Source: Thermoplasmata archaeon
GTDB taxonomy: Archaea; Thermoplasmatota; E2; UBA202; JdFR-43
DNA: 60,046 nucleotides
Assembly: GCA_021162065.1 (NCBI GenBank)
Contig: JAGGZK010000032.1
Location: forward strand, 1 to 60,046
Direction of reading: 5' to 3'
Shown here: one piece after another, positions 11,065-59,822 of the stretch
Position numbering within the stretch: the stretch's first letter is position 1
Layout: every line of letters begins with the position of its first letter
Translations under genes and position numbers: made by a program
Notes under the pieces: generated by a model
Databases searched by the model: none
What the model saw: the letters and a program-made list of their open reading frames with translations, nothing else
What the model was told of the DNA's origin: nothing

Positions 11065-12546
11065 ATGGAAAGGCGGGGACATCTGCTGTTCATTCTGATC
11101 GTGGCTTTAATATTCGTCGCCATCGTTGTTTACAATGAGAGCAGAAAGGAAGGGAGTGTGGAGGCAAAACCCGTTTTTTCAGGCGATTATGATCCCACCA
11201 CGGACATACAAGTAATATTTCGCATAGACAGAATAAGGAAGATAGATTTTGAGCTGAACGAGGAGCCAACCATGGAACTGGAGATATCCATAGATGGGAC
11301 CACATATGAAGTGGGTCCCTGGAAGGGACTGGATGTATACCCGAGGTGGAGGCACATACAGGATGTGGATGACGGCAAGGAAAATGTCAGCATAGAGGTT
11401 AAATTATATGAGATTCAGGGAGAGGAAAAGATTCTGTCTGATATAAGCCCGGCGGATGGAGATTATACGGGTAAGACGCTGAAACTTACATACTCCATAA
11501 AAACTGGCGAGTGGTGGGGTGAAGACTGGCTTGGAGATGAGAATGGCTATGGCCATGCTTCCGGCACGGAAGATGGCAACTATGGGGAAAATGATTATGA
11601 GATATTCTTTGACATATATCAGACAGATGCCGATGGTGACCGCCTAACCTACTGGGAGGAGGTGAATGTTTATCATACCGATCCGAATGCCAGCGATTAT
11701 GGAAAGGATTATGATAATGATGGCGTGCCCATCCAGTGGGAGGATAAATATGGCTATGATCCATTTACCCCAGAAAACCACTCCACCCTCGACCCTGACA
11801 AGGATGGAATACAGAACATAGAGGAGTATTGGATGGAAGAGTGGCATTCCGATCCCTTCTGCCAGGATGTTTTTGTAGAGGTGGACTACATGAAAAATCT
11901 GCTCTTCGGCACCACCACCTTGCCAGAGTACTCAAAGGAAAAGGTGATGTCTGCCTTCACCAAGCACAACATAGTTCTTCACATAGATGATGGGCTGATG
12001 GGCGGCGGCGGGGAGGTGCTGCCCTATGAAAAATTCTACACCCCAGAGAAACTTTCCCTTTATTACAAGGAATATTTCCTTCATAACGGAAGGGAAGAAT
12101 GGAGAAAGGGCATTTTCAGATATGCGGTGATGGTTCACTACACAATACCATCAAGGAAAAATGTGGCCGGCTACTCCTACTGGCCCACCAACGAGGATAA
12201 ATTCTGCGCCTTTGTTGTGGGAACAAGGGTAATCAAGAATTATCGCTTTACTCCACTGGCGAGGCAGACGGCCACGGCAAGTCTATTCATGCATGAACTT
12301 GGCCACACCCTGGGCATATTCTGGCATACCTATCATGGATGCGACAACATGACCACCATTTATCCATGGCTCAGTGGATGGGATATATATGGTAACTACA
12401 AGAGCTGCATGAACTATCGCTATGCCTGGCAGTTGGTGGATTACTCGGACGGCAGTCATGGAGAAGGCGACTTCGATGACTGGAGCCATATAGACCCTGC
12501 TTTCTTTGAGAAGAACTTCTTTGCGGAGCCACCGATAATACTATAA
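11065..12546 (+). CDS. membrane-anchored/secreted zinc metalloprotease with thrombospondin-type-3-like Ca-binding repeats
   Basis: N-terminal TM/signal anchor (LLFILIVALIFVAIVVY). Asp-rich repeats TDADGDRLTYWEE, DYDNDGVPIQWED and DPDKDGIQNIEEY. HEXXH site FMHELGHTLGIFWH (metzincin-like). Confidence 0.7.
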   Translation: MERRGHLLFILIVALIFVAIVVYNESRKEGSVEAKPVFSGDYDPTTDIQVIFRIDRIRKIDFELNEEPTMELEISIDGTTYEVGPWKGLDVYPRWRHIQDVDDGKENVSIEVKLYEIQGEEKILSDISPADGDYTGKTLKLTYSIKTGEWWGEDWLGDENGYGHASGTEDGNYGENDYEIFFDIYQTDADGDRLTYWEEVNVYHTDPNASDYGKDYDNDGVPIQWEDKYGYDPFTPENHSTLDPDKDGIQNIEEYWMEEWHSDPFCQDVFVEVDYMKNLLFGTTTLPEYSKEKVMSAFTKHNIVLHIDDGLMGGGGEVLPYEKFYTPEKLSLYYKEYFLHNGREEWRKGIFRYAVMVHYTIPSRKNVAGYSYWPTNEDKFCAFVVGTRVIKNYRFTPLARQTATASLFMHELGHTLGIFWHTYHGCDNMTTIYPWLSGWDIYGNYKSCMNYRYAWQLVDYSDGSHGEGDFDDWSHIDPAFFEKNFFAEPPIIL

Positions 12547-12585: not shown

Positions 12586-15543
12586 TCATATGTTGAATAT
12601 CCATACTTTTTGTTCATCCATGGCTGTGTTGCCTGCAGCATCATATGCCACTATTTTTATTTCATGCCTCCCTATAATAGATTCATCCCAGAACCATGTG
12701 AATGGAGAAATATAGCTCGAATTTTTGAATTCACCATCTACATAAAAAGAAACATTTGAAATACCTATATTATCGTCTGCATCTGCCTCTATTGTTACCC
12801 CTCCAATGATTACCGTGAAAGGCGATGGAATTATTTTTCTATCGTTAAGATAAAGCCCATTCCTTGGTTTAACCAGTTCAACAGTTGGGGGAGTCGTATC
12901 TGAAAGAATTGTAAATGTTGCATCGGATATATCTTGCCCAGTGTTAACACCATCTGTCGCAATGACTTTTATGAGGCATTTATCTCCCGGTGGAAGCCAG
13001 CGAGTATCCAAAATATAGTTGTTTCCAGTAACATCTATATCAATAGGAAGCCATGTTTCTCCACTATCATTGCTATATGATATTGCGAATGTAAGTTCAT
13101 CTGCATCTGCATCATATGCTTCCCATGTGATTGTATAATTTTCGCCTGGGTGTAAAATTTCGCCACCATTTGGATGAGTAACTGTAACAGTAGGAGAATT
13201 CTCGCTCACTATCCTACTTGCCAAAACATTTCCATCTTTGTCTCTTAGTTGAATCTCTTTTGTTCCATTTATCCAAGGAATTCTAAGACAAAAACCTGAT
13301 ATATTTGTTTCTACTGGCGACTCCGAAAACTTAACAAAGGAGGTGTTAAAACCTGCAAGACCGAGTAAATTACCATGTTCATCTAAGAAACCAAAGCTAT
13401 AATCCCCAACATCCCCTATCTCAGCATCTACTAAGTTTCTTTGTGAGAGATGATAAAATGGATCTATTTCAACTCTACCATCTCTATAAATCAGCCCACT
13501 AACAACCATTATTTCGGGGGGGTCTTTTGGTATTTTATTCCATAAAATATTGTAACATTCTTTACATATCCAATCATTCCCAAAAGTTTTCGGTGGGATG
13601 GGTGGGCCCATAAAGCATTTTCCTTCTTTCTGCAGGATCCCCTTAATAATCCAATATATAGTAGCAGAACGATCATGATCCTGTAATCCATATGTATGTC
13701 CGATTTCATGTGCAGGGGTAGTCCAGTAATCAACTTCGCAAATTACCACTGGGATGTTGGGATAAGCAAAACCATTTGTGGTTGGAGTAGTATCTGGCGA
13801 GTTTGCGAATATCCAACCCTTCCTAACTAAGCCTACAACACGAACATTTTCATCTGGGCTAGTCACACGAAATCTTCTTCCTAAATTTTTCAACCAATTA
13901 ATTTCTTGTTTTGTCGTAGGTTTTCCGGGTATAGTTGGAAAATATAACCTATATTCATTTTTTACATAACCAGCGCAGTATGAAGTTAGGGGATAAGTAG
14001 CATATATAAATTCTGCAGATTTAAAAGTCGTTTGTTCAAAGCCCCCAAACATGGCATCAGGTCGATTTCTTCCTACTCGAATGTAAAAGAGTTGCAAGTG
14101 CCCTTTTTTCACCTTAAACTCCCCACTTAATTTATTATTATTTATATTTGCTTCTCCTGCTACTGGAACTATTTCCACCTCTATCGTTATTTTCGGCTTA
14201 ATAACCTCCTTCTTAAGATATTTATTAGGTGGTGGAACCCATGGTTCCAGTTTATGAGGACCACCCTTTTTAATGGTCCTTATTTCCTCGCCAACTACCA
14301 CCCCATTAACCTTTACTATTACCTTTGTTTTCACATTTTTATTGAAAGTCGACTTATACCAGATCTCAACGAGAGTCGGCTTCTTCTCCACCAATTCAGG
14401 ACCGGATATTTTTCCAGTTTGACTTATACCAGCACCTTTAACAACCTGAATTGGATAGAACTCCAACAAAATAATATCTGGTGGCGAAATGTTATAATAT
14501 ACCGTTTCCTCATCATATCCATAATTTCCGGCAGCATCGCTTGCCTCTATTTTTATTTTATTCCACCCTTCATGCAATGTTATCGGAATTTCAAAGGAGA
14601 AATTGGTAGTTGGCTCTTCCAGTGGCCAGCTGCTTCCTGTCGCTCCTCCCTCCCATTCATGGGTGTATCCATAGGAAACCACCCCAACATTGTCCGTGAT
14701 GTATCCCCAGGCGGTTATATTGGGTTCAGTAAAAACACTTCCATTTTCGGGGTATTTCTTAACAACAACAGGTGGCTCTGTATCATTTCCAGATATGGTA
14801 ACTATCAACGGCTCAGACCACTCGCTTTCCTCGAGGTAAGGCAAATCTCTCGCCTTTGCTTTAACCTCATATGTCCCGGGCTCATCCCATGCATGAAATG
14901 TCTCAAAAGGCGTTCCAGAAGTAATGGGATCAAGCCATCCGGTGTTGGTACCATCTCCCCAGTCAATTAGATATTCCAGTGAGTCGCCATCTGGATCTGT
15001 TGTTACGGTGTTAAAATGCAAGGTCTCCTTAACCTTTCCTTCAGTTGGGCCTTCCGGCGTGGAGGGTTTATTTGGAGGAGTATTTGACGGGTTATACGTA
15101 ACATTGACACAATCCTCTCCTGTCGCCCCATATATGTTTTTAAATCTCACCGTAATCAGATTCCATCCTTCATGCAGCCCATATATATCTATTCTGAATT
15201 CAACATATTCTGCTGTTTCAAAATAGGACGAATTGGTTTTTGAACCACCCTTCCATTTCCATTCCCATTCCCAGTAGTTCATCCCATTATCATCGCTTGC
15301 ATATCCAAGAACAACTAAATGAGGATCTGTAACAACCGCTCCATCTTCTGGCTGGGTTATGACAACAACGGGTTGCAGCGTGGACAAAGGGCAATTGTTA
15401 TCCCTAAAGATTATGGTAGCAACAACCCTTTCATTTTCCCTTTTCCCCTTTTCATATTCATTACTTATAGTTATCCCACTAACCAAAAACAGAAAGGTTA
15501 TCAACAATACCAACAACCTTCTCATTTTTGCCTCCTTTCTCAC
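12586..15543 (-). CDS. large secreted HEXXH metalloprotease with PKD and Ig-like modules
   Basis: Signal peptide (MRRLLVLLITFLFLVSG). PKD signature DPDGDSLEYLIDWGDGT. Two paralogous modules ending in LHEGWN. Active site PAHEIGHTYGLQDHD. Ig-like C-terminal modules. The start could be Met7 (15525). Confidence 0.75.
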   Translation of the reverse strand: MRKEAKMRRLLVLLITFLFLVSGITISNEYEKGKRENERVVATIIFRDNNCPLSTLQPVVVITQPEDGAVVTDPHLVVLGYASDDNGMNYWEWEWKWKGGSKTNSSYFETAEYVEFRIDIYGLHEGWNLITVRFKNIYGATGEDCVNVTYNPSNTPPNKPSTPEGPTEGKVKETLHFNTVTTDPDGDSLEYLIDWGDGTNTGWLDPITSGTPFETFHAWDEPGTYEVKAKARDLPYLEESEWSEPLIVTISGNDTEPPVVVKKYPENGSVFTEPNITAWGYITDNVGVVSYGYTHEWEGGATGSSWPLEEPTTNFSFEIPITLHEGWNKIKIEASDAAGNYGYDEETVYYNISPPDIILLEFYPIQVVKGAGISQTGKISGPELVEKKPTLVEIWYKSTFNKNVKTKVIVKVNGVVVGEEIRTIKKGGPHKLEPWVPPPNKYLKKEVIKPKITIEVEIVPVAGEANINNNKLSGEFKVKKGHLQLFYIRVGRNRPDAMFGGFEQTTFKSAEFIYATYPLTSYCAGYVKNEYRLYFPTIPGKPTTKQEINWLKNLGRRFRVTSPDENVRVVGLVRKGWIFANSPDTTPTTNGFAYPNIPVVICEVDYWTTPAHEIGHTYGLQDHDRSATIYWIIKGILQKEGKCFMGPPIPPKTFGNDWICKECYNILWNKIPKDPPEIMVVSGLIYRDGRVEIDPFYHLSQRNLVDAEIGDVGDYSFGFLDEHGNLLGLAGFNTSFVKFSESPVETNISGFCLRIPWINGTKEIQLRDKDGNVLASRIVSENSPTVTVTHPNGGEILHPGENYTITWEAYDADADELTFAISYSNDSGETWLPIDIDVTGNNYILDTRWLPPGDKCLIKVIATDGVNTGQDISDATFTILSDTTPPTVELVKPRNGLYLNDRKIIPSPFTVIIGGVTIEADADDNIGISNVSFYVDGEFKNSSYISPFTWFWDESIIGRHEIKIVAYDAAGNTAMDEQKVWIFNI

Positions 15544-35578: not shown

Positions 35579-37576
35579 CTATATGTTAAAGATGAGGGCA
35601 CTCTTCTGATCTTCCACCTCTTCTCCCTCTCCATAGCCCACAACCTTTAGGGTTCTTGAGCCAAAGGACATTTCATCCAGCAGATACTCATAGGGCGCCT
35701 CCTCATCCACATATTTCAGCTCTCCATCAACATAAAACTCCACCTTTTCCACATTGTACGCCGCCGCTTCTATGGTTATCTTGCCCAGGATTATGGTCTT
35801 TCCGAAGAGAGTCGGCATTATTTCCCTGTCTCCAAAATATAGATAGCCATCAGAGGGCTTATTCAGATAAACTATGGGACTGGTGGAGGAATAGCCGCCT
35901 ATCATCAGACTGGGATCGCCGAAAAGTGTCCATTCCTCTATTGTCTTGTACTGTATCGCATCATTCAATCTCTGGGTCATGATGTAGGTGGAGATGGAAT
36001 TACCCCACATCTCTCCAAGATGACTGCCAATCTTGAAGTTTTTGCAGAGAAGCACGTCCATATACCCAGACAGTCCGCTGGGTGCATAATCGCCAAGATA
36101 CCCCCATGAAAGTCCTGCCGCAGCAAATGTTGCTATGCCTCCTCCAGTACTTTTTCTCACCAGTTGCCAGGCAAGACAGGTGCCTTTGTCAAACTGGCCC
36201 GTCTCGCACGCGCTCAGAATAACAACAGGCGTTCTTTCATTGTTGGAGAAGGATGCCACATCCGTTATATCGAAACCCAGCCAGGTGTCGAAATCGCCCG
36301 GAGGATGTGTCGCCCAGCTCACCCTGTTGCCGTGGCCCTCGAAGTTGAAAAGGGCGCCGCCCTCGCTGAATTTTTCCTTTATGGAGGCCTTGCTGAGAGT
36401 CCCATCGGATGTGAAAATATATTCTCTCTCAAAGGAGGGCAGATAAGAAAATGCCTTCTCCTTTATGACCTCTCCCTCATAAACGCCGTCGTTATCATCA
36501 TGGCTGTCGCCGGCAAAGGCAACGGCCTTATTCATCCACTCCGCTCCGCTGGCCAGGTTTTCGTAGGTGATGATTTTCTGTATCACATTTTTCACATCCG
36601 TATCGCTGCTGCAGGCCAGCCTGCCTATATATACATCGGGATACCCATCCACATCGTCCCTCTGCCCGTTGTGGTCATATTCCGCATAATACCCGTTGCC
36701 GTTGGTATCCCATGAGGAGAATTCGCCATTTCCATCATATATGTCCGCATAGTATAAATCGCTTGCAAATCTTGCCTCATTGCCATCGTAGGCATATGAA
36801 TATCTCACCGGGATATCGTCTGCGCTCCCCACAAGAAGAACATATTTTATGCCGTATCTATCAAGGGCATCCTTTATGGCATACTTTATATCCTCCTGTT
36901 CGTCATTTCCAAAATATTTGCTGTAGATTTCATTCAGTCCCATCACAAGCGTTCTCACCCCATGGCTCTCCTTATGGAGTCTCAGCGTTTCCACCTCATC
37001 CAGCCATTTGTCAGGAGCGATTATGAGCAAATCATAGGAATCTGTAGAAACAAAGGGAATCTTTGCCGTTTCATAATCAACATTCACATCGAAGTGATGG
37101 GCGTATTCCATAACATTTCTGGCAGGATTGTACTGCACCGGATAAAGATATAGAGTGATGATTGTGGACAGCTTTCCGTTCCTCAAACCTGCACCGACCT
37201 GGAATTCATACCATGTTCCGGGATAGAAGGCATCTCTGGAATAAATATCGCCTTCCATAACCTCATTCCCGCCCTCCCCCATAATCCGGGCAGGAGGAGA
37301 GGGGATAATTTTTTTGTCGAGGGAAATGGACTCCACGTCCCTGGCTTTTACATCTATCCCTTCTACCTTGCTCCCGAATGGAAGAACGTATTCCCTGACA
37401 TAATATGGAATAATTGGATAGCCAGAACTGAGAGCATAGCTGGCATTGTTGAGATGCACCATGCAGTACTCGCCGTATGGCACTATTGATATCCCGTCCT
37501 CGCCAGAAACTCTCTGAAATCCTGCCCCAGTGAACACTAACAGCGCAGCAATTAACACTGCAACCCCGTATCTCAT
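35579..37576 (-). CDS. secreted peptidase C25 (gingipain-like) cysteine protease with a shared C-terminal Ig-like module
   Basis: Signal peptide (AVLIAALLVFTGAG). DLLIIAPDKW...YVLLVGSADDIPV...ASDLYYADI, catalytic-His region FNFEGHGN, and catalytic-Cys region VVILSACETGQFD. C-terminal ...VEFYVDGELKYVD...ALIFNI. Confidence 0.75.
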   Translation of the reverse strand: MRYGVAVLIAALLVFTGAGFQRVSGEDGISIVPYGEYCMVHLNNASYALSSGYPIIPYYVREYVLPFGSKVEGIDVKARDVESISLDKKIIPSPPARIMGEGGNEVMEGDIYSRDAFYPGTWYEFQVGAGLRNGKLSTIITLYLYPVQYNPARNVMEYAHHFDVNVDYETAKIPFVSTDSYDLLIIAPDKWLDEVETLRLHKESHGVRTLVMGLNEIYSKYFGNDEQEDIKYAIKDALDRYGIKYVLLVGSADDIPVRYSYAYDGNEARFASDLYYADIYDGNGEFSSWDTNGNGYYAEYDHNGQRDDVDGYPDVYIGRLACSSDTDVKNVIQKIITYENLASGAEWMNKAVAFAGDSHDDNDGVYEGEVIKEKAFSYLPSFEREYIFTSDGTLSKASIKEKFSEGGALFNFEGHGNRVSWATHPPGDFDTWLGFDITDVASFSNNERTPVVILSACETGQFDKGTCLAWQLVRKSTGGGIATFAAAGLSWGYLGDYAPSGLSGYMDVLLCKNFKIGSHLGEMWGNSISTYIMTQRLNDAIQYKTIEEWTLFGDPSLMIGGYSSTSPIVYLNKPSDGYLYFGDREIMPTLFGKTIILGKITIEAAAYNVEKVEFYVDGELKYVDEEAPYEYLLDEMSFGSRTLKVVGYGEGEEVEDQKSALIFNI

Positions 37577-38361: not shown

Positions 38362-40911
38362 ATGAAGTTGCTCTCCCTGCTGATTGTATTCGCTTTCATC
38401 TCTCCCCTCAATTATGCCATAGAGGTGGACAACAACGGCACCTACGAAAACGCATGCCGTTACAACGTCAATGGTTTCATCTACCTTCACATAGAGGGCG
38501 AACCCTACGAGCGGGGATACCAGCATGGCTACCTTCTCTATGCGGAGATAGCAGATATGATTTACAGATGGAGCAACATCATCCACAACTGCCCCGTGAT
38601 GATTAAATACCTTCCCATAGATGAAAACTCCTCCAAATATGAGGAATTATCCGAAAAATGGTGGAATGAATGCAAAAAACTCTCCATGAAAATCTTCTGG
38701 CCCTATTATCCGGAGGAATACCGGGAGGAAATAAGAGGAATAGCGGATGGCGCCCGCGCCCGGGGTGTGGAGATATACGGGGATCCCATAACATATGAAG
38801 ACGTGCTCACTCTCAATGAGATGTATGAACTTATGAGCATTCTGGTGAATCCGACGAAGAGCTTCCACATGCTCAAGGATGTCTTTCATTCCCTTTCCTC
38901 CGTATGCCCGTCCCTTGCGGGAAAGGAGATGGAATTTGCCTCTGCCTTTTATCCTGTGCACCACTGCAATGGGTTTGCGACCGTCGGCGACGCCACAAAG
39001 GACGGCAGAATTGTGATAAGCGATTCCGTATGGTGCGGTGGATGGTGGTACTCCTACTACATAGCCCAGAGATGGAATGTCATACTGGACATAGAACCCA
39101 GCAAGGGACACCGCCTTATAATAGCCACATCCCCCGGCTACATCTGGAGCGATGAAGATTACTGGCAGAACGATGTGGGGCTTGCCATGGTGGAAACAAC
39201 CTTCATCCAGGGAGTGTACCGGCTGAAGGGGCTGCCCCTTGCCATAAGGGCAAGGATGGCGATTCAGTATGGCGACACCATAGATGATGTCATTCGCTAC
39301 CTTCTTACGGAAAATACGGGCGTCATGAATGCCCAGTGGCTCATAGCAGATGCGGAGGCCAACGAGATTGCCCTTCTGGAATTCGGGCTTTATCACTACA
39401 ATGTCATAAGAAAAAGCAACGGCTTTTTATGGAGCGCCAATAATCCCTTCGATTTCTGGGTGAGAAGGGACATACTCGGGTATGAGATAATTAAGGCGCC
39501 CATCTTCAGGCTTGCACATATGCTGCTCAACACCAGCGGATATGAGTACTACACCCTCTTCTATACCCCCTCAGACAGAGACATAAAATTTGAGGAACTG
39601 GGGAATAAGTACTATGGAGAAATAGATGTCGATGTGGTAAAAAAGATAATGAGCACGCCCCCCATAACGGATTTCACCACAGACTGCAAGATAACGGATG
39701 GCAGAATGATATTCAACAACACCCTCTGGGCATTCTGGGGGAATCCAACCTATGTGTGGAACACCTCATCTCTCAGCAAACTGAAGGGGGTAAGAGATGT
39801 GCCCCCTGCAGGATGGGTTAAAATATATGGTGTCCCCTACGGGTTTGAGCCAGAGTATGAAAAGGGGAATATGGGAAAGGGAAGAAATGCCCGGCTGCTA
39901 TGGAGTTATGAGCTCGGGGGAATGAATTATGAGAGAGCAAGGATGTTCACCGATGGCAGCAACATATACGCGGCATATAAGGACATGCTCTATGCCATGA
40001 ATGAAAATGGAAGCATGCTCTGGAAAAGAGAACTCGATGGAGACATAAAGGATGCATATGTGGGGGATGCATTATATGTCATCACCGCCAACAAGTCCTA
40101 TGCCTTTTCCCCGAATGGAGAGCAGGTATGGAGCGGGAGAGGAGGAGATGATATACTGGAGGGAGACGGAAAAATTTACATTGCAGATGGGGAAGGAGTG
40201 TATGCGGATAAAGAGATATTTCCGAGGGGGGCAAATCTGCTTGCCTACCATAAGGGCATATACATGGCATATGGAGACCGCCTCATCGCCCCAGAATGGA
40301 ACTTTACGGCAGGGGGCGAAATAGCGGATGTGGAGATTGGAGGCGATACTTATGTGGCAAGTGCCGATGGAAATGTGTATTGCCTTGATAGCAATGGGAA
40401 CATAAAATGGAAGCGGGGAGCGGGATGGTGCATATCGGATGTGGAAGAAGACGATGGCAGGATATACGCATCCAGCTACGACGGAAATGTATATTGCATG
40501 GGCGATGATGGAAGCATTTTATGGATATTCAGCTGCAATGGTTCTGTGAGCGATATAGAGGAATATGGGGACATGATATATGCTTCCTCCACCGACGGGA
40601 GAATGTATGCCATAAATAAAAGCAATGGAGAGGTGGAATTCAGCTTTGCGCCGGCCTATGAAATAGAGGGAACATACAACTATATAACCACACCCCTCTC
40701 CAACATAGTGGCAACCTCTGGAAAGATATTCTTCAGTGCAGCGGGGAGCATATACTGTATTGATGCCGAAACCATGGAAAAGGATGTGGGAGGGAGAAGC
40801 AAAACAAAAACCCAGTCCATTCTTCTTGGCGTAATCGCGGCAATCATAATTTTATTGCTCATCTTTCTCATTTACAGGAAGTACAGAAAACTTGAGGGTG
40901 AAGAGGAATAG
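38362..40911 (+). CDS. surface protein: peptidase C45/acyltransferase-like Ntn-hydrolase domain + PQQ-type beta-propeller + C-terminal TM anchor
   Basis: Signal peptide (LLSLLIVFAFISPL). IEGEPYERGYQHGYLL and HHCNGFATVGDATKDGRIV give a C45/AAT-like pattern with a candidate nucleophile Cys. Repeated DGNVYCLDSNGNIKWK, DGNVYCMGDDGSILW and DGRMYAINKSNGEVEF (PQQ-like blades). C-terminal ILLGVIAAIIILLLIFLIYRKYRK. Confidence 0.65.
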   Translation: MKLLSLLIVFAFISPLNYAIEVDNNGTYENACRYNVNGFIYLHIEGEPYERGYQHGYLLYAEIADMIYRWSNIIHNCPVMIKYLPIDENSSKYEELSEKWWNECKKLSMKIFWPYYPEEYREEIRGIADGARARGVEIYGDPITYEDVLTLNEMYELMSILVNPTKSFHMLKDVFHSLSSVCPSLAGKEMEFASAFYPVHHCNGFATVGDATKDGRIVISDSVWCGGWWYSYYIAQRWNVILDIEPSKGHRLIIATSPGYIWSDEDYWQNDVGLAMVETTFIQGVYRLKGLPLAIRARMAIQYGDTIDDVIRYLLTENTGVMNAQWLIADAEANEIALLEFGLYHYNVIRKSNGFLWSANNPFDFWVRRDILGYEIIKAPIFRLAHMLLNTSGYEYYTLFYTPSDRDIKFEELGNKYYGEIDVDVVKKIMSTPPITDFTTDCKITDGRMIFNNTLWAFWGNPTYVWNTSSLSKLKGVRDVPPAGWVKIYGVPYGFEPEYEKGNMGKGRNARLLWSYELGGMNYERARMFTDGSNIYAAYKDMLYAMNENGSMLWKRELDGDIKDAYVGDALYVITANKSYAFSPNGEQVWSGRGGDDILEGDGKIYIADGEGVYADKEIFPRGANLLAYHKGIYMAYGDRLIAPEWNFTAGGEIADVEIGGDTYVASADGNVYCLDSNGNIKWKRGAGWCISDVEEDDGRIYASSYDGNVYCMGDDGSILWIFSCNGSVSDIEEYGDMIYASSTDGRMYAINKSNGEVEFSFAPAYEIEGTYNYITTPLSNIVATSGKIFFSAAGSIYCIDAETMEKDVGGRSKTKTQSILLGVIAAIIILLLIFLIYRKYRKLEGEEE

Positions 40912-57146: not shown

Positions 57147-59822
57147 TTAGAGATTGAAAATCCACACCTTTATGCTTTTTTCCAGAATTTTTCCGGTTAT
57201 GGTGTGAACCACCACCTTCAACTCGTGTCTGAAAAATATTCTCTCATCCCATGTCCATGTGTGGTTGTTGAAAGGATCCACATATCTTACAACTCCGTCA
57301 ACAACATATTCCGTATAGTCCTCCCAGACGGGCCCATACACATCCATTTCCACATCTATTTTCCCTATCACCACAGTAATCAGGGAGGGCAATATCTTCC
57401 TGTTGAAGATGTAAATGCCTCTATAGGGCTTTTTTATTATCACATCCACATCTGCCTTCTTTAAGGCCACACTTATCCATAACGTCTCATTTTCCCCTAT
57501 TTTATATTCATCGGTGGAATTCCATTCATAGCAATCCCCAAAGAAATGGAGATAAATTTTTCCGGCAGCCGTTTTTATACTGTAAAATCCGTCCTCATTT
57601 GTAACGGTACTGTTCCAAATTTCGTATCCTTTCTCACCCTCCCAGTAAAGATAGACGGAGGCATGTGAAATTGGTTCTCCCGTGCTCTCATCATAAACAT
57701 AGCCACATACCACAGAATTTTCCACTGGAAACGGATAAAGGGAGATATTAAGCCACACGGTCTCGTTCTCCTCAACCGAGAGGTCAGGAAGATATTTTCT
57801 GAAATATCCGTAGGAATAGAAGGAGAGATATATCCTGCCCTTTGCCACGTTTATTGAATAAAAACCGCTCTCATTGGAGTAAGTGTAATTCCATTCTTCA
57901 TGACCCTCATCATCCTCCCATCTGAGATAAACCTCCACATCCTTTAGGGGTTCTCCACTCACCTCATCATTGATGTAGCCACATACCACAGTATTTTCTT
58001 CCGGGCGGGGAGTGAGAGAAACATTCTGCCATAACTTCTCGTTTTCGCTTATGTTGATATACTCTGTGGACCTGGAAAAATGGCCAGAGGAATAGAAATG
58101 CAGTTTTACTCTTCCAGCAGCCACATTCATGGTGTAGAATCCGCTTTCATCTGTATTGGTGGCATTCCACATGCTGTTTCCTGCTTCTCCCCTCCAGTCC
58201 ACCACCACATCTGCGTTTTTCAATGGCTTTCCCGTGTCCTCATCATAAACATAGCCGCATACCACAGAATTTTCCACCGGAATGGGGTAGAGGGACATAT
58301 TAAGCCATATGGTCTGATGCTCATAAACGTAAAACCATTCAGTCCTTTCTTCAAAATAGCCGTCTGCATAAAAGGACATGTATATCTCTCCCTGCGCCAC
58401 ATTTATTGAATAAAAGCCCTCCTCATTGGTGGAGGTTACATTTGTGTAATCGCCATCCTTCCCATCACTCCAGCGAAGGTATATGGTGGCATTTTTAATT
58501 GCCTCCTTGCTTGCCGCATCCCTCACATACCCGCAGATGACCGCGTTTTCCTCAGGATAGGAAATGAGGGAAGCGTTGAACCATATATCTTCTCCTTCGC
58601 CAATAATGAGGATGTTCCCATAATTAGGAAAATATCTGGCGGCATAGAAGGAGAGGATTATTTCTCCCGACGGAACCGGCATGGTGTAAAAACCATTGTC
58701 GTCGGTATGGGTTGAATTTGAGAGTGAATGGCCGGCATCGTCCCTCCATGTGGCAACCACGGTGGCATTCCTAACAGGGCTGCCCGTTGAGTTATCCACA
58801 ACATAACCTCTCACACCGGCATTTATTGGAGGAAGTGGATAGAGGGAAATGTTTAACCATATGGTTTCGCCTGCTTTAATGTCATAGTATTCAAATTCCG
58901 AGAAATATCCGTCCTTGGAGAAATAGAGGGAGATATGTCCCTCAGCCGTATTGAGGGAGTAAAATCCATTTTTATCCGATTCTGTGGACTTATGTTTCGA
59001 GTGTTTGCCATCATCCCACCATAGATGCACCTCCACTCCTTCAACACCCTCTCCACCCTCCACATTCTTCAAATAGCCGCATACAACAGCATCCTCGGGA
59101 GGAGCCGGGGGCAGAGAAAGATTTACCCACAGCCTTTCCCCATCTTTGATAGAATAGATGTCGCTCATCTCATAAAGATAGCCCTCGGCATTCGCACCCA
59201 CATTAATTTTTCCAGGTGGTACCCTGATTTCATAAAATCCGTTTTTGTCTGAGGTGGAAATGTTCCATATGGTGTTATTTTTATCATCCTCCCAAAGCAC
59301 ATCAACCCTTGCATTCTCTATTGGCTGACCCGTTTCATTATCCCTTATATACCCGCAGACAGTGGAGTTTTGAGGCGGTGCCTTCCTCATGGAGATGTTC
59401 ACCCAGAGCGTTTCATATTCTTTAATCTCAAACTCTCCCACCTTCTCAAAATAATAGCCCATGGCATTGCAGTAGACATATATCCTTCCTGCTTCCAGAT
59501 ATATGCTGTAAAATCCTTCCTTATCTGTGGTGAGATTGGTGAGAATGTCGCCATGGAATACATGCACGATGGCGTTCTCTATTGGCTGACCTGTCTCATT
59601 ATCCCTAACATATCCGCACAGCAATGAATTCTGGAGAGGAACAGCTCCATGAAATGTGGCATTTCTCATCCTTTCAAGAAATTCCTCCCAGATGCAGGGC
59701 ATCTCAATATTGCTGCTGTGTGAGACATTTTCATGATGAGTATTGCCATCCACATCCGGAATGGTAATGGAGATGAGTAAAAGGATAGTAACGCAAAACA
59801 CCTTCCAGCCTCTCACCTCCAT
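57147..59822 (-). CDS. secreted protein with eight tandem CarboxypepD_reg-like (carboxypeptidase regulatory-like) repeats and a shared C-terminal module
   Basis: Signal peptide (KVFCVTILLLISITIP). Eight repeats of about 85-95 aa, each with [CR]GY-x-x-D/N...G-x-P[IL]-x-N/D-A-x-V...T[DN]..G[FY]Y...A.GY/F...W.N[IV]SL. C-terminal ...YVVDG...KVWIFNL. Confidence 0.7.
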   Translation of the reverse strand: MEVRGWKVFCVTILLLISITIPDVDGNTHHENVSHSSNIEMPCIWEEFLERMRNATFHGAVPLQNSLLCGYVRDNETGQPIENAIVHVFHGDILTNLTTDKEGFYSIYLEAGRIYVYCNAMGYYFEKVGEFEIKEYETLWVNISMRKAPPQNSTVCGYIRDNETGQPIENARVDVLWEDDKNNTIWNISTSDKNGFYEIRVPPGKINVGANAEGYLYEMSDIYSIKDGERLWVNLSLPPAPPEDAVVCGYLKNVEGGEGVEGVEVHLWWDDGKHSKHKSTESDKNGFYSLNTAEGHISLYFSKDGYFSEFEYYDIKAGETIWLNISLYPLPPINAGVRGYVVDNSTGSPVRNATVVATWRDDAGHSLSNSTHTDDNGFYTMPVPSGEIILSFYAARYFPNYGNILIIGEGEDIWFNASLISYPEENAVICGYVRDAASKEAIKNATIYLRWSDGKDGDYTNVTSTNEEGFYSINVAQGEIYMSFYADGYFEERTEWFYVYEHQTIWLNMSLYPIPVENSVVCGYVYDEDTGKPLKNADVVVDWRGEAGNSMWNATNTDESGFYTMNVAAGRVKLHFYSSGHFSRSTEYINISENEKLWQNVSLTPRPEENTVVCGYINDEVSGEPLKDVEVYLRWEDDEGHEEWNYTYSNESGFYSINVAKGRIYLSFYSYGYFRKYLPDLSVEENETVWLNISLYPFPVENSVVCGYVYDESTGEPISHASVYLYWEGEKGYEIWNSTVTNEDGFYSIKTAAGKIYLHFFGDCYEWNSTDEYKIGENETLWISVALKKADVDVIIKKPYRGIYIFNRKILPSLITVVIGKIDVEMDVYGPVWEDYTEYVVDGVVRYVDPFNNHTWTWDERIFFRHELKVVVHTITGKILEKSIKVWIFNL

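Follow-up and report, generated by a model that had tools for sequence, protein, structure and literature searches.

Several described systems mark exported proteins at the C terminus. In the type IX secretion system (T9SS) of Bacteroidota, unrelated exported hydrolases, among them members of peptidase family C25, each carry one C-terminal β-sandwich domain (CTD) of ~80-100 amino acids, and the sortase of that system, PorU, itself belongs to family C25. In archaea, the PGF-CTERM signal of archaeosortase A also sits at the C terminus of surface or exported proteins, as a short tripartite signal (a motif, a transmembrane helix and a basic tail) that is processed and lipid-modified. In Gram-positive scaffoldins and exoenzymes, S-layer homology (SLH) domains and type-II dockerins are folded modules for non-covalent anchoring or docking, usually placed at one terminus. 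Here we analyze a folded module of ~110 amino acids that ends three exported proteins encoded in a 60,046-nucleotide stretch of DNA from a Thermoplasmata archaeon (GenBank assembly GCA_021162065.1, contig JAGGZK010000032.1, positions 1 to 60,046; the whole stretch is referred to below as the window). We find that this module, hereafter the tag module, represents a subfamily, specific to its lineage, of the immunoglobulin (Ig)-like domain Big_7 with an inserted hairpin, and we tentatively favor the idea, to which we give slightly less than even weight, that it is a non-covalent handle by which exoenzymes may be retained at or docked to the cell surface.

The window copies of the module lie at the 3′ ends of three genes on the minus strand, and plus-strand translations of the same spans are nonsense. 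The first gene (12586-15543, minus strand) encodes an exported zincin-like metalloprotease of 985 amino acids with a signal peptide, a PKD domain and a HEIGH motif, and its tag module (copy 1, 12586-12918, minus strand) comprises ~110 amino acids plus the stop codon; the zincin has two further Big_7-like modules, both internal and generic. The second gene (35579-37576, minus strand) encodes an exported Peptidase_C25 protein of 665 amino acids, made up of a propeptide and a catalytic domain that ends in GDPSLMIGGY and is followed after ~7 residues by the tag module (copy 2, 35579-35908, minus strand). The third (57147-59822, minus strand) encodes an exported protein of 891 amino acids with eight CarboxypepD_reg repeats ahead of its tag module (copy 3, 57147-57479, minus strand). 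At the start of all three proteins a hydrophobic segment comes after residues rich in K/R, resembling a signal peptide, and by Pfam the three passengers have no further domain in common. In an alignment the tails were 35-42% identical with 22 invariant columns (40% between copy 3, from P0004, and copy 1, from P0002), and BLASTP between copies gave E values of 1e-23 and 4e-23, far above chance. The original prediction of a C-terminal module shared by three otherwise unrelated proteins was thus correct, and the open reading frames (ORFs) end exactly in the sequences it quoted. Its coordinates were also correct, except that it began the module ~12 residues too late: the folded module starts at strand A (PPTVELV) and spans ~105-110 amino acids.

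The same prediction had suspected an Ig-like β-sandwich and had held that the sequence differed from known domains. An AlphaFold2 model of the module built on 26 paralogues agreed with the first idea, yielding an all-β Ig-like sandwich with a mean confidence score (pLDDT) of 95.9; the second did not survive, as the module is a divergent Big_7 (PF17957). Against the Pfam Big_7 model the P0002 module scored 40.3 bits and that of P0003 29.4 bits (gathering score 24.1), and most other family members scored 26-85 bits; the P0004 copy, a clear homologue of the other two, had no Pfam match on its own. NCBIfam had no model for the module, and a protein atlas search returned Big_7 labels or nothing. 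The top structural matches were the B1 domain of CelAly (9kvu, Z 13.4) and the X1 modules of CbhA (3pdd, Z 13.0; 3pe9, Z 12.6), with 95 aligned residues at a root-mean-square deviation of 1.9 Å for 3pdd and a range of 1.6-1.9 Å for the best matches. The Foldseek E value was 6e-7, and a profile search of the PDB matched 3pdd with an E value of 9e-22. The module therefore has a core homologous to Big_7, to the 'fibronectin(III)-like' X1 modules of Clostridium thermocellum CbhA (3pdd, 3pe9 and 3pdg) and to CelAly B1, and it has the motifs VEFYvDG, PY.W and AyD.aGN in common with Big_7 and CbhA X1.

What the module adds to this core is an extra β-hairpin or meander of ~20 residues between strands A and B, which in copy 1 corresponds to 12799-12870 on the minus strand (KPRNGLYLNDRKIIPSPFTVIIGG). 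Solved Big_7/X1 structures align by sequence only to profile positions ~44-109 and do not cover the insert, so the N-terminal third of the module, consisting of strand A and then a three-strand meander with the consensus [KR]P..G.[LI]Y.f.R.I.p....t.IIG, is specific to the subfamily. Among 116 full-length modules only three columns were near-invariant (Y24 in 100%, G42 in 99% and P18 in 98%), and all of them lie in the insert. That conservation peaks there suggests a common ligand, and the insert is a putative binding site. A homodimer prediction for the module scored 0.07 (mark, 0.42), which we use neither for nor against binding. The module is thus not a new fold but a lineage-specific Big_7 subfamily with an A-B hairpin insert. 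The ending [VL][WI]IFN[IL]-stop, noticed originally in the three window proteins, does hold for those three; only ~30% of the 116 family members have it, and we rejected IFN[IL]-stop as a family-wide terminal recognition motif.

Had the module been a generic Ig-like domain occurring anywhere in proteins, its C-terminal placement in the window would have meant little, and we found that this description fits the core and not the hairpin-bearing form. A profile of 26 copies matched 29,841 representatives in a library of 1.84 billion proteins; the best 150 matches were giant proteins with 6-50 tandem Big_7 repeats, in which only positions ~34-112 were covered, so that search says nothing on C-terminal bias but marks the core as generic. 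In a second database search, in which matches were re-scored domain by domain, 81 modules matched at full length (profile positions 2-113, ~54-140 bits, one copy per protein), and all 81 ended 0-17 amino acids from the C terminus, 78 of them within 12. The same set of proteins held 154 core-only Big_7 matches of 15-55 bits, in tandem and anywhere along the chain, in 39 proteins. The source genome split in the same way, into 32 full-type modules and 17 core-only Big_7 domains that ended at relative positions of 0.43-1.0. C-terminal bias is a property of the hairpin-bearing subfamily alone.

The source genome is 1.38 Mb in size, 95.9% complete and contains ~1,300 genes, and scanning it with a hidden Markov model built from the three copies, as had been suggested, found the module in 35 ORFs. 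In 32 of these the module ended within 11 amino acids of the stop codon. Two others, adjacent PQQ-propeller ORFs, had weak, atypical matches 29-32 amino acids before the stop; this pair of PQQ β-propeller/NosD ORFs (G000:C38:13608-17307, minus strand) has no obvious signal peptide and may be one disrupted gene. In the remaining ORF (C67:12705-16295) the module occupied residues 64-163 of 1197. Leaving out five ORFs cut by contig ends and one 115-residue fragment, 27 of the remaining 29 ORFs with an intact 5′ end had signal-peptide-like N termini (K/R residues plus a hydrophobic segment), in line with the proposed restriction to exported proteins. The fragment (G000:C71:20761-21105, minus strand), a stop-to-stop ORF holding a tag-like module alone, with neither signal peptide nor passenger, is probably a gene fragment or pseudogene.

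The position of the module and the signal peptides of its carriers are what one would expect if it were a tag for anchoring or sorting, with a single departure from the claim that it is always C-terminal. The protein with the early module (L049, from C67:12705-16295) consists of a 22-residue signal-anchor, the module, an LTD (lamin-tail) domain, a Peptidase_C11 (clostripain-family) domain and a generic Big_7. Of 30 relatives, 5, belonging to two families, have orthologues that also carry the module at the N terminus, at 56-65% identity, and we conclude that this architecture is genuine and that the module there is, judging from the predicted signal-anchor, membrane-proximal. One such orthologue group implies that a free C terminus of the module is not obligatory. 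Elsewhere the cargo is varied. Tagged peptidases include C25 (three), C1 (two), M28 (two), S15, M14, InhA-like and zincin proteins, and other tagged proteins have PKD, NosD/β-helix, cohesin or CarboxypepD_reg domains; this diversity makes a substrate-specific role unlikely.

The same terminal position and abundance could arise if the module were an Ig domain of a passive, accessory kind, without a part in sorting or anchoring: either a stabilizing or spacer 'foot', or a generic binder of particles or polymers akin to carbohydrate-binding modules or PKD domains, which could have become terminal and abundant only as a 3′ cassette spread by recombination within the lineage. We regard this explanation as unlikely, though it deserves to be taken seriously. 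Big_7 occurs generically in extracellular enzymes, glycoside hydrolases supply the best structural matches in the form of accessory modules, the linkers to the catalytic domain are short and many C25 paralogues lack the tag module. Yet a merely passive domain fits poorly with the split just described, in which generic Big_7 is tandem and unconstrained in position but the hairpin form occurs once, and terminally, in >95% of cases, or with strongest conservation in the insert rather than the core, or with a cargo that comprises peptidases, glycosidases and non-enzymes.

Beyond the source genome, all 40 related genomes searched had matches to the module, with 9-54 matches per genome in 38 genomes of its own order and 10 and 2 in two genomes of other families. 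A survey of the class at E ≤ 1e-18 was positive for 160 of 197 genomes (108 of 108 in one family), and four families of the class were nearly all negative (0/4, 1/32, 1/2 and 0/1). In a sample of 301 genomes from the phylum, positives were confined to the same families, plus weaker matches in one other (f34, 2 of 3 genomes); f34 and the rare positives of the negative families have a related insert-bearing form near the C terminus that is less strictly terminal. Homologues with NCBI names came from metagenome-assembled genomes of 'Thermoplasmatales archaeon' and 'Thermoplasmata archaeon', with one from a 2.5-kb contig labelled Aquificota. The module is thus confined to one large clade of sediment Thermoplasmatota, whereas generic Big_7 is tandem or internal and lacks the hairpin with its invariant P, Y and G. 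Taken together, homology, fold, single copy, C-terminal position, signal-peptide cargo, restriction to a clade and high copy number are established for the module.

We then compared the module with known sorting systems. Archaeosortase/exosortase (PF09721) had no match in the 95.9%-complete genome, with a control matching in M. jannaschii, and the tails end in a β-strand (..v.ifNl) with no hydrophobic helix and no C-terminal motif, transmembrane helix and basic tail, so that unlike PGF-CTERM the module is a folded soluble domain. Neither Por_Secre_tail (PF18962) nor TIGR04183 matched the modules or the whole proteins at E ≤ 1 (Pfam and NCBIfam), PPC and SLH models from the same two collections did not match the module, and Dockerin_1 (PF00404) had no match in the modules, with true dockerins present elsewhere in the genome. 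We do not take the module for a secretion signal that is cleaved off, nor for a signal that directs lipid attachment.

The parallel with T9SS raises the idea that the module is a sorting signal recognized by a translocon or sortase and removed (for example by a PorU-like C25 peptidase), possibly in exchange for a covalent anchor. In Bacteroidota, too, exported hydrolases of diverse kinds, gingipain-family C25 included, bear an Ig-like domain at the C terminus, C25 genes were present in every tag-bearing genome sampled and P0003 weakly matched a PorU model (84.7 bits against a cut-off of 420). We nevertheless find it very improbable: the organism is an archaeon, the T9SS CTD models found nothing, the extreme C-terminal motif is not conserved, the module is also N-terminal and internal in one family, no conserved partner gene stands beside tagged genes, and C25, the only T9SS-related component searched, was also present in 72 sampled genomes without the tag module. 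The sortase that the original prediction had hoped to find alongside the module was not found, archaeosortase being missing from the matches and C25 showing no specific co-variation; next to the three genes in the window lie housekeeping genes unrelated to them (for a PfkB kinase, PheRS alpha, histidine kinases and a Rad50-like protein).

C25 itself we rejected as a tag-specific sortase on account of those 72 genomes, the mostly untagged paralogues and the lack of conserved synteny. The family is greatly expanded in the source genome, with ~24 loci in 1.38 Mb (for example C39:16594-18564, C60:10450-12354 and C65:24368-26176), and most of the paralogues stop right after GDPSLKIGGY, with no C-terminal domain and no anchor.

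Evidence that points to surface retention comes from what occupies the position of the module in related proteins. In Thermoplasmatota families without the tag module, 5 of 5 complete ORFs for C25 peptidases ended in a transmembrane helix. M28 homologues in tag-less, high-GC sister families (L073-L076; G177, G158 and G163) had lipobox N termini (...AGC) and no tag module, which suggests that these families may use lipoprotein anchoring; lipoboxes are rare in the source genome (~10 by a heuristic). The same comparison for S15 and M14 found no homologues in tag-less sister families. Within the source genome, two of three exported cohesin proteins end in a Big_7 core, a G-rich linker, a transmembrane helix and a charged tail (in one of them the cytoplasmic tail is Cys-rich); the tag module ends the third, which is the best conserved of the tagged proteins in the family. 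By a crude heuristic for export, applied to ORFs of at least 250 amino acids, the genome has 154 exported-looking ORFs, of which 27 have the tag module, 22 a C-terminal membrane helix and 6 a lipobox. We infer that elsewhere, in paralogues or other lineages, anchoring probably falls to a membrane helix at the C terminus or a lipobox at the N terminus.

Because helix and tag module appear in equivalent slots in C25 peptidases and cohesin proteins, as do lipobox and tag module in M28 peptidases, and because the module abuts a membrane anchor in the N-terminal exception, we favor retention at the surface, a role we infer from these architectures. The module is added once, at the extreme C terminus, to Sec-exported proteins, and on this proposal it would keep exoenzymes non-covalently attached to the cell envelope or to a partner at the surface, possibly through the conserved insert. 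In logic it would resemble SLH domains and type-II dockerins, to which its fold and sequence are unrelated: like them, it is common to many exoenzymes and a cohesin-bearing protein.

The resemblance to dockerins also suggests a different partner, namely that the module is an assembly handle joining tagged enzymes to each other or to a scaffold rather than to the envelope. One terminal module per enzyme is the arrangement seen in dockerins. In relatives, three to five tagged genes lie next to one another in tight, co-directional arrays (L102, G044:C37:902-10132; L103, G109:C44; L105; L106), which look like polysaccharide-utilization arrays; among their passengers are glycoside hydrolase (GH) family 13 amylases, an F5/8-C protein and a GH31-like protein. 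The genome also has a cohesin-dockerin set, and a cohesin is borne by the best-conserved tagged protein. Enzyme assembly nonetheless seems to us a rather improbable role, as no protein is known to us in which receptor domains for the module are repeated, and the cohesin protein bears the module itself, in the slot taken by the membrane helix of the other two. The cohesin-dockerin set is small and lies outside the window (G000: C13:191-5222, C63:613-3336, C68:4722-6998 and C15:36659-37984); two proteins of the genome end in Dockerin_1, and one dockerin gene is directly upstream of a tagged C1 peptidase.

Several points weigh against surface retention. One orthologue group has an internal, near-N-terminal module; ~20 of the ~24 C25 paralogues in the genome have neither the tag module nor a C-terminal helix, which means that not all exoenzymes require the tag; and the homologues behind the anchor-slot comparisons are few and distant. 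Any receptor or envelope ligand of the module is putative. To our knowledge, its closest solved relatives, the X1 modules of CbhA, have no established anchoring role, and both the C-terminal position and the high copy number could stem from shuffling of a merely structural domain.

Two other genes in the window, both without the tag module, are of note. One (11065-12546, plus strand) encodes an HEXXH protein that had no Pfam match at E ≤ 1e-4 and is convergent with the zincin gene (12586-15543, minus strand), the two forming an exported HEXXH pair separated by a 39-bp gap. The other (38362-40911, plus strand) encodes an 849-residue protein with a Phospholipase B-like domain and a PQQ-type β-propeller.

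The fold and the family of the module are known, and its hairpin-bearing, terminal, clade-wide form is new; in the full-text literature we found no paper describing a hairpin-bearing Big_7 subfamily. Were the module merely structural, the result would be a well-delimited Big_7 subfamily and little beyond. [quoted passage not shown] Two studies place these archaea among the leading candidates for protein degradation in anoxic sediments (PMC6461988, PMC9123169). Whether exoenzymes stay bound to the cell or diffuse away decides who profits from hydrolysis, and if one tag does mark ~35 exoproteins per genome, the surface-exposed degradome would be definable from sequence alone. A profile of the tag module would fill an annotation gap where Pfam sees a partial Big_7 or nothing, and the tag, if it is one, would open a way to study the cell envelope of a lineage that is uncultured.

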